Shown here: piece after piece, positions 17,266 through 19,866 of the stretch
How positions within the stretch are numbered: the stretch's first letter is position 1
Layout of the letters: each line of letters opens with the position of its first letter
From: Escherichia coli
GTDB lineage: Bacteria; Pseudomonadota; Gammaproteobacteria; Enterobacterales; Enterobacteriaceae
Strand: one strand, 5' to 3'
Assembly (NCBI RefSeq): GCF_044324785.1
Contig: NZ_CP172127.1
Length of the DNA: 64,000 nucleotides
Notes under the pieces: model-generated
The model's input: only the letters and a program-made list of their open reading frames with translations
Told to the model about the DNA's origin: nothing
Databases searched by the model: none
Position numbers and translations under genes: made by a program

Positions 17266-18534
17266 TTATTGATTAAATGCGACGTGTAAGGCATCCACAC
17301 TACGTGCCGCTCGCAGCGTGCGTCCGGGGTTACTCTGGCTTGCCAACAGCGTTTGTACCTTGCTGACAATATGCGCACCAATAGGAATTGCTGATGTCGC
17401 TGCCGGGGAGGGCGCATTGCAGGTGTGGATCGTGCGTGGGGTGGTGACAAACAGAAAATCGTCAATCAGCTTGCCGTCCGGCGATACTGCCTGCGCCCGC
17501 ACACCGGCGGGCCAGGGCTGGAGATCGCTTAACGAAAGCCGGGGACAATACTTTTGCACCAGCCGCAGATAGCCGCTTTTGCACAGCGAGTTTTTCATCT
17601 CGCCCAGTCCTGAGCGTAGATGGTTTTGCAGCACCCGGCGAATCCCCGACGAGCCTAAAATCTCCAGCGTGTCGCTAAATGAGAAGTCGCGCTTGCGATA
17701 GCCTTCACGTTTCAACGCCAGCACCGCGTTTGGCCCGACGGTCACGCTGCCGTCGATCATGCGGGTGAGATGCACGCCCAAAAACGGCATTGCCGGGTCG
17801 GGGATGGGGTAAATTAGGTGGTTAACAATCTGGTTATGCTCCGGCGCAAGGCGGAAATACTCGCCACGGAACGGGCAGATGATAAAGCCCGGTTCGAGGC
17901 CGAGCATTTTCACCAGCCGGTCAGCCATCAGCCCGGAACAGCTAATCAGCGTCGATGCTTCATATTCACCGCCCTGACGGGTACGTATCACCACGCCGTT
18001 TTTATGCTCACTGAGGGCGCTGACTTCGGCGTTATAAATAATCTCGCCGCCTCTGGCCTGGAAGATTTTTGCCATCGCCGCCGTCACTTCGCGATAGCTG
18101 ACAATGCCGCTGGACGGCACAAAAATGCCGCCAAGCCCGGTGATATTCGGTTCGCGCTCGCGCAGTTCCTCAGCGTTTAACCACTCACGCTCAATACCGT
18201 TTGCCGCTGTGCGTTCCCACAACGCGCGCATCCGTTCCATTTCGAGTTCAGAGGTGGCGACCAGCATCTTTCCGCAGTTGTCATAGCGAATGCCGTTTTG
18301 ATCGCAAAAGGCTTTGGTGGCGCGGTTCCCCGCCAGGCAAAACTGCGCCTTCAGGCTGCCGGGCGTGTAATAGACTCCGGCATGGATCACGCCGCTGTTG
18401 TGGCCCGTCTGGTGACAGGCCGGGCCGGACTCTTTTTCCAGCAACGCAATGCGGGCATCCGGATAGACATCAATCAGTTGCATGGCGGTCGACATGCCGA
18501 TGATGCCGCCGCCAATAATCACAAAATCATACAT
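17266..18534 (-). CDS. lhgO: L-2-hydroxyglutarate oxidase/dehydrogenase LhgO (YgaF)
   Basis: ORF 17266..18600; start at MYDFVIIGGGIIGMSTA (FAD-binding GxGxxG) gives 422 aa. Confidence 0.9.
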   Translation of the reverse strand: MYDFVIIGGGIIGMSTAMQLIDVYPDARIALLEKESGPACHQTGHNSGVIHAGVYYTPGSLKAQFCLAGNRATKAFCDQNGIRYDNCGKMLVATSELEMERMRALWERTAANGIEREWLNAEELREREPNITGLGGIFVPSSGIVSYREVTAAMAKIFQARGGEIIYNAEVSALSEHKNGVVIRTRQGGEYEASTLISCSGLMADRLVKMLGLEPGFIICPFRGEYFRLAPEHNQIVNHLIYPIPDPAMPFLGVHLTRMIDGSVTVGPNAVLALKREGYRKRDFSFSDTLEILGSSGIRRVLQNHLRSGLGEMKNSLCKSGYLRLVQKYCPRLSLSDLQPWPAGVRAQAVSPDGKLIDDFLFVTTPRTIHTCNAPSPAATSAIPIGAHIVSKVQTLLASQSNPGRTLRAARSVDALHVAFNQ

Positions 18535-18553
18535 CCGCTCAATCCCTTTGCGC

Positions 18554-19531
18554 TTACTGATGCGTCTGGTAGTGGTGAGTGACGTAAGCGAAATAGCCAC
18601 GCTGACGCATCAGTTCACGGCGCAGATCCGGGTGCGGAGTAAAGCGGTCGCGACCGTGCAGCCAGAACAGGTTGTTAATCAACAGAAATTTGCCAACGGG
18701 AACGGGTACAGAAAGAATGCCTTTGCTGGTTTCAATGGCGTCTGAAAGCTCGCTCAACCACACGCCTTCTTCGAAGTCTTTCGGCTGGACGAATTGGTCG
18801 ATATAGCGCATCACCGGGCGGCCCAGCTGATCGACATCGAACACCGGATGGAAAACATCTTTGCTGACGTTTTTGCTCGGCGGCGCGGCAAAGCGCATCG
18901 GGCGACGCGCCAGTGGATGGCGGAAATAGTGGTCCAGATGTTCCCAGTCATCGAGATGCAGCAGCAACGAATTTCCACCCTGCATGTTCTGCTCGTCGAT
19001 TTTCATCATCAGCACATAGTCAGTGATCTCTTCGACGTAGGTGCCGTCGTTATGCAGCTCCATTACGCGGTGCGGCTGACGCAGATAGCTGTCTGAGTTA
19101 TCGACATTTTTCACTACAAAACGCGCGTAATACTGACCGCTCATCGCATCGAAATTGGAGCGACCAATCAGATGCGCCACCGCCGTCGCCAGCTTCACCA
19201 TCTCATCCGCTTGCTTCACATCATCGACACCCACCGCATTGATCAACAACGCACCTTCAGCGCGGTTTAGCAGCGTCTTTAACAGCAACGGTTGCAGCTG
19301 ATTCGCACACAGATCGTCGAGAATTTTGCCTACCCGAAAACGCAGAAACGATTTGTACTCCAGCGCCTGTACGGGCCATTCGGCAACCTGTTCGAGAAAC
19401 TGTTTGGTCGTCTGTTCGGTGAAGGTAAGTTCCAGTAGACGCGGGGATTGCGCCGACGGGATGAGAGTGAATCCGCTATAGTCCTGGCCTGAATCGACAG
19501 CGTTATTTTGTACGGCGGTCAGTGCATTCAT
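18554..19531 (-). CDS. csiD: Glutarate hydroxylase CsiD (GlaH), Fe(II)/2-oxoglutarate-dependent oxygenase
   Basis: ORF 18554..19636; start at [21 protein letters not shown] gives 325 aa; first gene of the csiD-lhgO-gabDTP cluster. Confidence 0.9.
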
Positions 19532-19866
19532 CAGAAGCGATCCTCTTATGAGATGTAGGGTGACATGGCGATGCTCATTTCGTAGCCATAATCTAAAAAT
19601 ATCTACATTTCTGAAAAATGCGCACAAAAGCGACATATTGTTTTCTTATTGTGATCACAAGCAACAAATTAGTAACATTTAATGTGGGGTATTGAGGCAA
19701 AGTGAGACAGGAAATGAATAACTAAAGCAACAGGTTAGGGGGAGCTACCATCAGAGAACAGATTATCTGGTCGATAAAAAACAGTAAATGGCTTCACTGC
19801 AAAATGACCGTTAGTAAACTAAACATATTATCTGCCCCGTTTTAGCGGGGCAGATATAACATTAAA

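Follow-up and report, generated by a model that had tools for sequence, protein, structure and literature searches.

The stretch of DNA analysed here (64,000 nucleotides, the window) almost certainly carries the known chromosomal csiD(glaH)-lhgO(lhgD)-gabD-gabT-gabP-csiR(glaR) cluster of Escherichia coli, with its textbook starts and promoter, in an E. coli-like genome. The cluster is already known and is ordinary, being among the best-characterised sigma-S/CRP-controlled operons of E. coli.

Identity and layout of the cluster

Including the csiD control region, the cluster extends over 12107-19668. An earlier reading made from the sequence alone (the sequence-only reading) had placed it at 17266-19660, an interval that takes in lhgO and csiD but leaves out the rest of the cluster and covers only the first 129 bp upstream of csiD. 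As it had stated, the six genes lie on one strand, which is the minus strand. Their translations are free of internal stops.

19531..18554, minus strand: csiD/glaH, glutarate dioxygenase, 325 aa, start ATG at 19531
18534..17266, minus strand: lhgO/lhgD, L-2-hydroxyglutarate dehydrogenase/oxidase, 422 aa
17243..15795, minus strand: gabD, NADP-dependent succinate-semialdehyde dehydrogenase, 482 aa
15781..14501, minus strand: gabT, 4-aminobutyrate transaminase, 426 aa
14190..12790, minus strand: gabP, GABA (and 5-aminovalerate) permease, 466 aa
12769..12107, minus strand: csiR/glaR, GntR-family glutarate-responsive repressor, 220 aa
11657..12106, plus strand: kbp/ygaU, convergent neighbour of csiR
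19867-22119: amylase-family ORF, upstream neighbour
22679-22751: tRNA, where the syntenic K-12 and PCN033 records have tRNA-Ile/ileY

The identification as csiD-lhgO-gabDTP-csiR was borne out by gene order and neighbours, which are those of K-12 b2659-b2665, and by NCBIfam equivalog matches for csiD (NF002814, 541 bits, cut-off 333), lhgO (NF008726, 605 bits, cut-off 299), gabD (NF008415, 1080 bits, cut-off 828, 1-482/482), gabT (NF005985, 913 bits, cut-off 713, 1-426/426), gabP (NF007566, 1060 bits, cut-off 871) and csiR (NF008576, 466 bits, cut-off 218). The six products share 98-100% amino acid identity with those of K-12, csiD being 98-99% identical to its K-12 and PCN033 counterparts, and the cluster DNA is 97.5-98% identical to that of E. 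coli. In the same way, the chromosomal context agrees with K-12 and PCN033 on both the tRNA-Ile ileY/ygaQ side and the kbp-yqaE-stpA side. In K-12 the same six genes are found in the same order and on one strand (b2659-b2664), with ileY, a ygaQ homologue, kbp, yqaE and stpA as shared neighbours. The alpha-amylase-family gene, intact in the window, is however a pseudogene (ygaQ) in K-12.

By orthology with K-12, lysine-derived glutarate would be processed in stationary phase by GlaH and then LhgD toward alpha-ketoglutarate/succinate. In parallel, GABA and 5-aminovalerate would be imported by GabP and handled by GabT and then GabD, also feeding alpha-ketoglutarate/succinate.

The spacers csiD-lhgO, lhgO-gabD, gabD-gabT, gabT-gabP and gabP-csiR measure 19, 22, 13, 310 and 20 bp. 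The compact layout described beforehand, with gabT-gabP as its exception, is therefore real, but the proposed range of 12-22 bp has to be corrected at its lower bound to 13-22 bp. Each of these spacers accommodates just a Shine-Dalgarno sequence, as is usual in polycistronic operons. The spacers of 19, 22, 13 and 20 bp are identical in K-12, as is the zero-spacer junction between csiR and kbp. The gabT-gabP spacer, on the contrary, has 237 bp with REP in K-12 and 310 bp without REP in the window.

14191..14500, minus strand: gabT-gabP spacer, 310 bp, with G+C-rich palindromic repeats replacing the REP elements of K-12

About 220 bp of it could not be aligned to the 237-bp, REP-containing spacer of K-12 or PCN033. 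Of 5426 complete E. coli genomes, 1303 carry the allele of the window, and the length of this spacer ranges from 211 to 1603 bp in Escherichia. It is hypervariable, which is a minor lead. Apart from the tRNA, an Rfam scan of 11000-24000 gave nothing but sub-threshold noise within the gabT-gabP repeat, and the operon yielded no known RNA element.

Start codons and the longer open frames

The frames of csiD, lhgO, gabP and csiR had been described as extending upstream of the conserved start, and all four are indeed open there. For gabD, no start codon precedes the annotated one in its ORF.

19636..19634, minus strand: ATG of the csiD long frame, 35 additional codons, intergenic, at -47..-45, within the promoter and 5' of the TSS
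from 18600, minus strand: GTG of the lhgO long frame, 22 additional codons, 47-nt overlap with csiD
from 14277, minus strand: TTG of the gabP long frame, 29 additional codons, extension in intergenic DNA
from 12787, minus strand: ATG of the csiR long frame, 6 additional codons, beginning 2 nt past the gabP stop
19541..19547, minus strand: csiD Shine-Dalgarno AAGAGGA, 9 nt 5' of the ATG

For these four genes translation begins at the conserved short starts, and the long frames are non-coding. It is exceedingly improbable that the long frames represent genuine N-terminally extended proteins or alternative isoforms truncated by current annotation, even though each of the four is open from an ATG, GTG or TTG. 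The first argument is ribosome binding, since a Shine-Dalgarno sequence precedes each annotated ATG and is missing at every long start. The csiD element keeps its GAGG core across the aligned genera with one exception, a Citrobacter (AAAAGGA), among 30 distinct leaders. It is AGGGA, within the 19-bp spacer, for lhgO and GAGAGGA for gabP, and the csiR arrangement CAGGAG-N7-ATGACC is kept in 19 of 19 aligned Enterobacteriaceae sequences.

Comparison of the N-termini with orthologs, which had been proposed as a check, also supports the short starts. The equivalog profiles begin at the annotated Met of csiD and of gabP (long-frame residue 30) and at residue 2 of lhgO (long-frame residue 24). The ATG at residue 1 is conserved in the related loci for lhgO (76/76), gabP (29/29) and csiD (79/79, counting loci whose alignment reaches residue 1), and the PDB chains 2r6s and 9bwu start at the short csiD Met. 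Upstream of these codons, related loci keep the frame open for as little as 1 codon or for more than 100.

Close relatives moreover fail to preserve the extensions, which are interrupted there by stops or frameshifting indels or have lost the start codon. E. coli, E. whittamii and two further Escherichia genomes retain the csiD extension ATG, which could speak for a longer protein, but csiD of E. albertii and Pseudocitrobacter has a stop 14 codons upstream without a start codon, and the E. albertii leader carries a net -1 indel. For csiR, two mapped TSSs lying 22-49 nt 5' of the ATG would take in the ATG at -18. This upstream ATG (-6 codons) is found only in some Escherichia, and in Salmonella and Pluralibacter the frame is closed by a stop two codons 5' of the conserved ATG. 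The gabP extension begins within a spacer allele without homology to that of K-12. As for lhgO, the extension is conserved at 61% in its own frame versus 85% in the overlapped csiD frame; the upstream frame is open because it crosses the constrained 3' end of csiD. Finally, the csiDp transcript starts 47 nt downstream of the long csiD ATG, which therefore cannot serve it as a start codon, and its 58-nt leader contains no in-frame ATG, GTG or TTG. The long frames of the four genes would thus be open by chance, and none would be translated.

A leaderless mini-ORF in the conserved csiD leader (ATG GCT ACG AAA TGA) was considered and rejected, as several genera have lost or displaced its stop and only the first 12 nt are invariant.

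The expectation that automated annotation would mis-call overlaps at this locus did not hold. RefSeq/PGAP gives glaH 978 bp in 5 of 5 genomes examined and, in K-12 and PCN033, where the full cluster was inspected, gives lhgO 1269 bp, gabP 1401 bp and csiR 663 bp. Only one of the four long frames, that of lhgO, would create an overlap. The only longer calls met, which might be taken in favour of extended proteins, were those of an older Klebsiella pneumoniae annotation (csiD 1017 bp, csiR 693 bp).

The csiD promoter

In K-12, sigma-S dependence, cAMP-CRP activation, glutarate-relieved repression by CsiR and the enzyme activities are described by Knorr 2018 and, as cited second-hand, by Marschall 1998, Germer 2001 and Metzner 2004. 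CsiR operators of the form TTGTN5TTTT-N6-ATGTN5TTTT were defined by hydroxyl-radical footprint (Knorr et al. 2018). The corresponding elements of the window are as follows, its TSS and 3' ends being transferred from K-12 and EDL933 by sequence identity.

19589, minus strand: csiDp TSS (an A), 58 nt 5' of the csiD ATG
19615..19627, minus strand: CsiR primary operator 1, TTGTGCGCATTTT, at -38..-26 over the -35 region, fitting TTGTN5TTTT
19596..19608, minus strand: CsiR primary operator 2, ATGTAGATATTTT, at -19..-7, fitting ATGTN5TTTT, 6 nt past operator 1
19601..19596, minus strand: -10 element TATTTT, overlapped by CsiR operator 2
19829..19856, minus strand: terminator hairpin of the upstream alpha-amylase-family gene, upstream limit of the csiD control region

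The distance of 58 from TSS to start codon is given both by RegulonDB v10.5 (MG1655) and by Cappable-seq of EDL933 (PMC10469882 Table S5). TSS data for csiD had been named as a further check, and these two independent data sets place the TSS 58 nt before the ATG and downstream of the long-frame ATG. From -45 to the csiD ATG, the window is exactly that of K-12, with the CsiR operators, the -10 element, the TSS and the Shine-Dalgarno sequence included, and operator 2 is nearly invariant across Enterobacteriaceae. At the level of sequence, the window thus has the csiDp architecture, with the CRP box at -68.5, both CsiR operators and a TSS 58 nt from the ATG. A sigma-70 consensus scan did not find csiDp, as would be anticipated from the weak -35 region of a sigma-S promoter, and a literature search with the csiDp sequence as a literal string gave no relevant match.

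The entire operon would be driven from the TSS at 19589 by csiDp acting as a sigma-S promoter and activated by cAMP-CRP bound to a box centred at -68.5. CsiR would repress it via the two operators over the -35 and -10 regions and would be released by glutarate.

The CRP box and its palindrome

The CRP site of csiDp was placed at -68.5 by Germer et al. 2001, as cited in PMC2859248. According to the same source, the position of CRP at csiDp sets sigma-S versus sigma-70 selectivity, with -68.5 activating the sigma-S and not the sigma-70 holoenzyme.

19647..19668, minus strand: 22-bp cAMP-CRP box of csiDp, core GTTGC-TTGTGA-TCACA at 19665..19650, placed from the published -68.5 and the TSS
19650..19659, no strand assigned: palindrome TGTGATCACA, CRP box positions 10-19, made of spacer and right half-site TCACA

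The box is centred at 19657/19658. In the published register, the right half-site TCACA agrees with the consensus at 5 of 5 positions and the left half-site GTTGC at 2 of 5. With such a weak left half-site, the register rests on the published -68.5 and the TSS and not on sequence alone. The csiDp CRP site would accordingly be classed as weak and one-sided, which is consistent with activator-dependent promoters. Among the other Enterobacteriaceae promoters covering the site, TCACA is invariant in 23 of 23 and GATCACAA in 22 of 23, Leclercia having CATCACAA.

The sequence-only reading had pointed to the palindrome TGTGATCACA as a possible part of the cAMP-CRP/sigma-S control region of csiD. It is present, as a single occurrence at 19650-19659, and does fall within the published CRP box, but the functional symmetry of the site does not reside in it. 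As a CRP dyad it was rejected, since its arms abut without the 6-bp spacer and its centre (19654/19655) is 3 bp off the -68.5 centre. It is palindromic because a single T-to-G change at 19658 makes a TGTGA arm (TTTGA to TGTGA). In the window, 55 perfect 10-bp palindromes were observed against about 62.5 expected, so that palindromy alone is not beyond chance.

The changed base looks harmless and appears to be private. K-12 has T, not G, at this spacer base, and 19658 is the sole difference over 192 nt between the window and the nearest genome, AST215. Outside the lineage of the window, G at 19658 was found neither in complete E. coli genomes, the closest one included, nor in the 23 other Enterobacteriaceae promoters. 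Metagenome contigs gave 0 matches to the G allele versus 33 to the K-12 allele. The spacer of the box is also polymorphic elsewhere, as strain 105 has TTTTTA.

It is very unlikely that the change creates a new element altering csiD control, whether by improving or displacing the CRP register (TGTGA-N6-TAAGA at -62.5) or by allowing a different dimeric regulator to recognise TGTGATCACA. Such a reading has in its favour that TTTGA is converted to a perfect consensus half-site, TGTGA, and that CRP position at csiDp is reported to govern sigma factor selectivity (PMC2859248). Nevertheless, the partner half-site TAAGA is without either consensus C and is not conserved, a 6-bp shift would put CRP on a different face of the helix, and the changed base lies in the central spacer of the experimentally defined register, where variation is seen elsewhere too. 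The absence of the G variant from every other genome examined, in a sample drawn outside the lineage of the window, leaves no visible selection or spread, and 10-bp palindromes occur at chance frequency. The register TGTGA-N6-TAAGA (centre 19651.5, implied TSS 19583, -10 TAGATT) was itself rejected, as the 58-nt TSS distance and -68.5 give GTTGC-N6-TCACA, with which the invariance of TCACA fits. In this strain, the private T-to-G change could still alter the phasing or affinity of CRP at csiDp, which is less likely than a coupling of csiR and kbp.

The convergent csiR/kbp junction

The zero spacer described between csiR and ygaU was confirmed, the csiR stop ending at 12107 and the kbp/ygaU stop at 12106. 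The two stops abut in this way (0 bp) in E. coli, and 3-12 bp separate them in other Escherichia, Salmonella and Citrobacter. Since the two genes abut stop to stop, the 3'-end element of each lies inside the coding sequence of the other.

12052..12078, minus strand: csiR-sense intrinsic terminator, CCCGGGTAAATTTTATCCGGG followed by CTTTTT, inside the kbp coding sequence, from a terminator scan
12174..12203, plus strand: kbp-sense hairpin and 3' end, inside the csiR coding sequence; K-12 Term-seq position 2796240 (minus strand) corresponds to 12203

The csiR terminator has a 9-bp stem followed by CUUUUU, and the K-12 Term-seq 3' end 2796391 corresponds to its last U, at 12052. It differs from K-12 by one compensated stem change only and is kept in Escherichia, Salmonella and Citrobacter. 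The kbp-side element matches exactly a 61-nt K-12 Term-seq sequence, and its hairpin folds at -29.3 kcal/mol (z = -2.7).

It was considered whether this junction acts as a regulatory device, in which the 3' ends of the two mRNAs, overlapping by about 150 nt, let them regulate one another through antisense pairing or transcriptional interference; this is unlikely, though less so than the alternatives weighed above. Term-seq places the csiR-sense end 55 nt into kbp, a strong kbp-sense end 97 nt into csiR and a bicyclomycin-sensitive antisense end further inside csiR, and both 3'-end elements are kept in the window and in related genera. However, the hairpin embedded in kbp may persist only as coding sequence for the LysM motif PDKIYPG, the spacer varies over 0-12 bp among relatives without obvious consequence, and tight convergent gene pairs are common. 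Somewhat less probable still, the roughly 150 nt of perfectly complementary 3' ends (12052-12203) could couple CsiR to the stress protein Kbp via antisense pairing, RNase III or interference.

Comparison with related systems

Salmonella, Citrobacter and related genera have the same gene order and compact spacers, with conserved GATCACAA, CsiR operator 2, TSS region and Shine-Dalgarno sequence and with csiR and kbp convergent, 6-12 bp between their stops. Clusters of the Salmonella/Citrobacter type differ in a gabP-csiR gap of about 45 bp with a G+C-rich hairpin, lost in Escherichia, and in four additional N-terminal residues of CsiR. In some related genera, gabT or gabP is missing from the cluster. 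Pseudocitrobacter has an Escherichia-like cluster, which is a minor lead.

More distant csiD-lhgO loci, for glutarate hydroxylation, are found in Pseudomonas and Halomonas, where the CsiD orthologs are 69-74% identical and LhgO is next on the same strand, with spacers of about 90-100 bp. In the gene table of Pseudomonas defluvii, the single Pseudomonas locus inspected in this way, csiR lies upstream and is oriented divergently. The leader motif ATGGCTACGAA, conserved in enterobacteria, is missing from all Pseudomonas and Halomonas loci compared.

Class I CRP promoters such as lac, whose CRP site is at -61.5, likewise have an upstream CRP box with a TCACA half-site that activates from upstream of -35. 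Compared with them, csiDp is set apart by its box at -68.5 and its weak left half-site GTTGC.

Significance

The window matches a known operon almost base for base, and its significance is limited to that extent. The 3'-overlapping convergent csiR/kbp transcripts are a minor lead and not a discovery. On the other hand, the operon is a clean example of how longest-ORF calls fail at four of six genes, and it also illustrates that a striking palindrome, even inside a regulatory site that is real, can owe its existence to the accidental change of a single base and not be the functional symmetry element.

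Layout and identity of the cluster

Gene coordinates were obtained by transferring the annotation of E. coli PCN033 and K-12 MG1655 and by translating each gene, as follows.

Genes of the cluster and its convergent neighbour (window positions)
19531..18554, minus strand, csiD/glaH, 325 aa
18534..17266, minus strand, lhgO/lhgD, 422 aa
17243..15795, minus strand, gabD, 482 aa
15781..14501, minus strand, gabT, 426 aa
14190..12790, minus strand, gabP, 466 aa
12769..12107, minus strand, csiR/glaR, 220 aa
11657..12106, plus strand, kbp/ygaU, convergent with csiR

No internal stop was found in any of the six translated cluster genes, and all six products (GlaH, LhgO, GabD, GabT, GabP, CsiR) exceed the NCBIfam equivalog cut-offs and are 98-100% identical to their K-12 counterparts. 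A sequence-only reading had described six genes on one strand with 12-22-bp spacers except between gabT and gabP. The layout is as described but the range is not: from csiD to csiR the spacers measure 19, 22, 13, 310 and 20 bp, that is 13-22 bp apart from the 310 bp of gabT-gabP. Moreover, the interval under which it had filed the cluster (17266-19660) extends over no more than lhgO, csiD and a portion of the promoter.

The window comes from an E. coli-like chromosome. Of 5426 complete E. coli genomes, 5397 match a 4-kb piece around csiD/lhgO, the best at 98.0% identity, with glaH, lhgO, gabD and an alpha-amylase-family gene annotated beneath the match. The window's first 12 kb likewise have a best identity of about 98% in this collection. 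Best identities of only about 98% show that the strain is of a lineage absent from the 5426 genomes, perhaps Shigella or a divergent branch of Escherichia. Across positions 1-20500, no complete E. coli genome (n=5426) rises above about 98% identity over 12 kb. The alpha-amylase-family ORF (19867-22119, minus strand) is intact in the window and encodes 750 aa, whereas the gene at this position in K-12, ygaQ, is a pseudogene and that of strain 105 has an internal stop.

Start codons

Frames extending upstream of the conserved starts had been noticed for four genes, and all four are present as described: csiD (35 additional codons, ATG at 19636), lhgO (22, GTG at 18600), gabP (29, TTG at 14277) and csiR (6, ATG at 12787). 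Only that of lhgO would overlap a neighbour (47 nt of csiD). Five concurring lines of evidence, namely Shine-Dalgarno sequences, profiles and structures, conservation, the lhgO-csiD overlap and the transcription start site (TSS), all favour the short, annotated starts; the long frames are thus rejected as coding.

A Shine-Dalgarno sequence lies 6-9 nt before each of the six annotated ATGs (AAGAGGA, AGGGA, AGGA, GGAG, GAGAGGA and AGGAG), and none precedes the long starts of csiD, lhgO, gabP or csiR. Position 1 of the NCBIfam profile falls on the annotated Met in csiD and gabP and, in lhgO, on residue 24 of the long frame, one residue past the annotated Met, so that the extensions of these three genes are unmatched by the profiles. 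The CsiD constructs in the PDB start at the annotated Met.

The alignment of ortholog N-termini, proposed with the sequence-only reading, backs the short starts. Among orthologues aligned through residue 1, from 80 loci of other species retrieved with CsiD, a start codon occupies the residue-1 position in 79/79 csiD, 76/76 lhgO and 29/29 gabP sequences; upstream of it, the frame stays open for anything from 1 to over 100 codons. For instance, csiD of E. albertii and Pseudocitrobacter meets a stop 14 codons upstream without a start codon, and the E. albertii leader carries a net -1 indel. The gabP extension begins within a spacer allele non-homologous to K-12. For csiR, the block CAGGAG-N7-ATGACC is kept in all 19 aligned Enterobacteriaceae sequences; the upstream ATG is present in some Escherichia and nowhere else, and Salmonella and Pluralibacter carry an in-frame stop two codons ahead of the conserved ATG. 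The lhgO extension crosses the csiD 3' end; over these 15 codons, conservation is 85% when read in the csiD frame versus 61% in the long lhgO frame, and the csiD-frame third positions vary at 16 of 16.

Finally, the csiD TSS lies 58 nt from the ATG in both RegulonDB v10.5 (MG1655) and EDL933 Cappable-seq (PMC10469882, Table S5) and maps to 19589. The long-frame ATG (19636) therefore stands at -47, inside the promoter and excluded from the leader, and these 58 nt contain no in-frame ATG, GTG or TTG. The expectation that automated annotation would mis-call overlaps fails for current RefSeq, in which glaH is 978 bp in all five genomes inspected; short lhgO, gabP and csiR are also annotated in K-12 and PCN033, the two genomes with the full cluster inspected. 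An older K. pneumoniae annotation has a longer csiD (1017 bp) and csiR (693 bp).

The csiD promoter

PMC2859248, citing Germer et al. 2001, puts the cAMP-CRP site of the sigma-S-dependent csiD promoter (csiDp) at -68.5. Counted from the TSS at 19589, this cited value centres the box between 19658 and 19657 and gives, in that register, the core GTTGC-TTGTGA-TCACA (19665..19650). The palindrome TGTGATCACA, which occurs once in the window (19650-19659), then covers box positions 10-19, the spacer and right half-site, and so lies within the CRP box, in line with the proposal that it may be part of the cAMP-CRP/sigma-S control region. As a CRP dyad it was rejected, since no 6-bp spacer separates its two arms. 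A 10-bp palindrome is unremarkable per se, since 55 are present in the window versus about 62.5 expected.

The csiD upstream region was aligned with 24 other Enterobacteriaceae, 23 of which cover the CRP site. GATCACAA is unchanged in 22 of the 23 (Leclercia has CATCACAA) and TCACA in all 23, and the bases 5' of the conserved block differ (TTT, TTC, TTA, ATT). Invariant TCACA next to variable 5' bases argues that TCACA is the strong CRP half-site. The box also holds a GATC (Dam) site (19652-19655), unchanged in 22 of these 23 promoters, which is CATC in Leclercia and TATC in E. coli strain 105.

The TGTGA arm of the palindrome owes its existence solely to a G in place of T at 19658 (K-12 and PCN033 read TTTGATCACA); this substitution is the only difference over 192 nt from AST215, the closest complete genome. 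A G-bearing 35-mer has no match among complete E. coli genomes, the K-12 35-mer 3299, and a 43-mer with the G close to its end has one-mismatch matches only. In metagenome contigs, exact 32-mer matches numbered 0 for the G allele versus 33 for the T allele. Strain 105 has another change in the same spacer (TTTTTA), which is consistent with weak constraint on it.

Knorr et al. 2018 footprinted the primary operators of the repressor CsiR, TTGTN5TTTT and ATGTN5TTTT, 6 nt apart.

CsiR operators in the window
19627-19615 (-38..-26), operator 1, TTGTGCGCATTTT, exact match to TTGTN5TTTT
19608-19596 (-19..-7), operator 2, ATGTAGATATTTT, exact match to ATGTN5TTTT

Operator 2 overlaps the -10 element TATTTT, and from these positions CsiR would repress by promoter occlusion. 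Window and K-12 are the same base for base from -45 to the csiD ATG. The leader from +1 to +12 (19578-19589), ATGGCTACGAAA, begins exactly at the TSS and is unchanged from Escherichia to Hafnia and Shimwellia; the remaining leader diverges. Lying 6 nt past operator 2 and resembling ATGTN5TTTT (ATGGctacgAAAT), ATGGCTACGAAA may represent one of the CsiR sites that Knorr 2018 calls 'secondary'. The same bases create a leaderless ATG; the 4-codon ORF that it opens shows no conservation.

The convergent csiR/kbp junction

The csiR and kbp (ygaU) stop codons are directly adjacent with 0 bp between them, as had been read from the sequence. A terminator scan found the following element.

Predicted terminator
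12078..12052, minus strand, hairpin and T tract within kbp

K-12 Term-seq (Adams et al. 2021, supplementary tables) reports a csiR-sense 3' end at 2796391, which is window position 12052, the final U of this tract. The same tables give a strong kbp-sense 3' end at 2796240, equivalent to 12203 and just past a stable hairpin (12174-12199) within csiR, and a bicyclomycin-sensitive end deeper in csiR. The window's kbp-side element is identical to the printed K-12 Term-seq sequence, its csiR terminator departs from K-12 only by a compensated stem change, and both fold as expected. Each gene's 3'-end element thus sits inside the other gene, and so the zero spacer is accommodated. The two K-12 transcripts have complementary 3' ends of about 150 nt (window 12052-12203).

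The kbp-embedded hairpin is kept in Salmonella and Citrobacter, a conservation that is ambiguous because the same bases encode a conserved LysM motif. Another K-12 Term-seq 3' end, at 2791241 (window about 17275), lies 9 nt ahead of the lhgO stop at the lhgO-gabD junction, without an obvious terminator there.

Comparison with relatives and function

Escherichia clusters share the gene order of the window with near-identical spacers (19, 21-22, 13 and 20 bp), and those of Citrobacter and Salmonella are similar. The gabT-gabP spacer is hypervariable, ranging from 211 to 1603 bp across Escherichia. K-12 has a 237-bp allele with REP elements, unlike the window, and Escherichia sp. MOD1-EC7003 (locus L009, 7893-9495) a 1.6-kb array of about 14 REP pairs. 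The 310-bp allele of the window (14191-14500) carries G+C-rich palindromic repeats and lacks REP elements; among 5426 E. coli genomes, 1303 share it, and each genome has 3-5 copies of parts of the allele.

At the gabP-csiR junction, a G+C-rich hairpin of the TTCCCGGCGCAGGCCGGGAA type is found in Citrobacter, Salmonella, Klebsiella and Pseudocitrobacter (comparison loci L011-L033). Escherichia has lost it, retaining a 20-bp spacer (window 12770-12789), and its CsiR N-terminus is four residues shorter. Three Pseudocitrobacter loci (P. vendiensis, L003; a MAG, L004; P. faecalis, L010) carry a csiD-gabP block with 91-95% DNA and 96-100% protein identity to Escherichia, whereas no resemblance to Escherichia is seen in their csiR (87-88%), in the flanks or in the csiD promoter upstream of the CRP box. 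This mosaic suggests that the segment was imported by recombination.

All sequence-testable features that define the K-12 glaH-lhgD-gabDTP-glaR locus are present in the window. The cluster is an ordinary operon, already known, and by orthology its function would be that of the K-12 system, as described by Knorr 2018 and the older work cited there.
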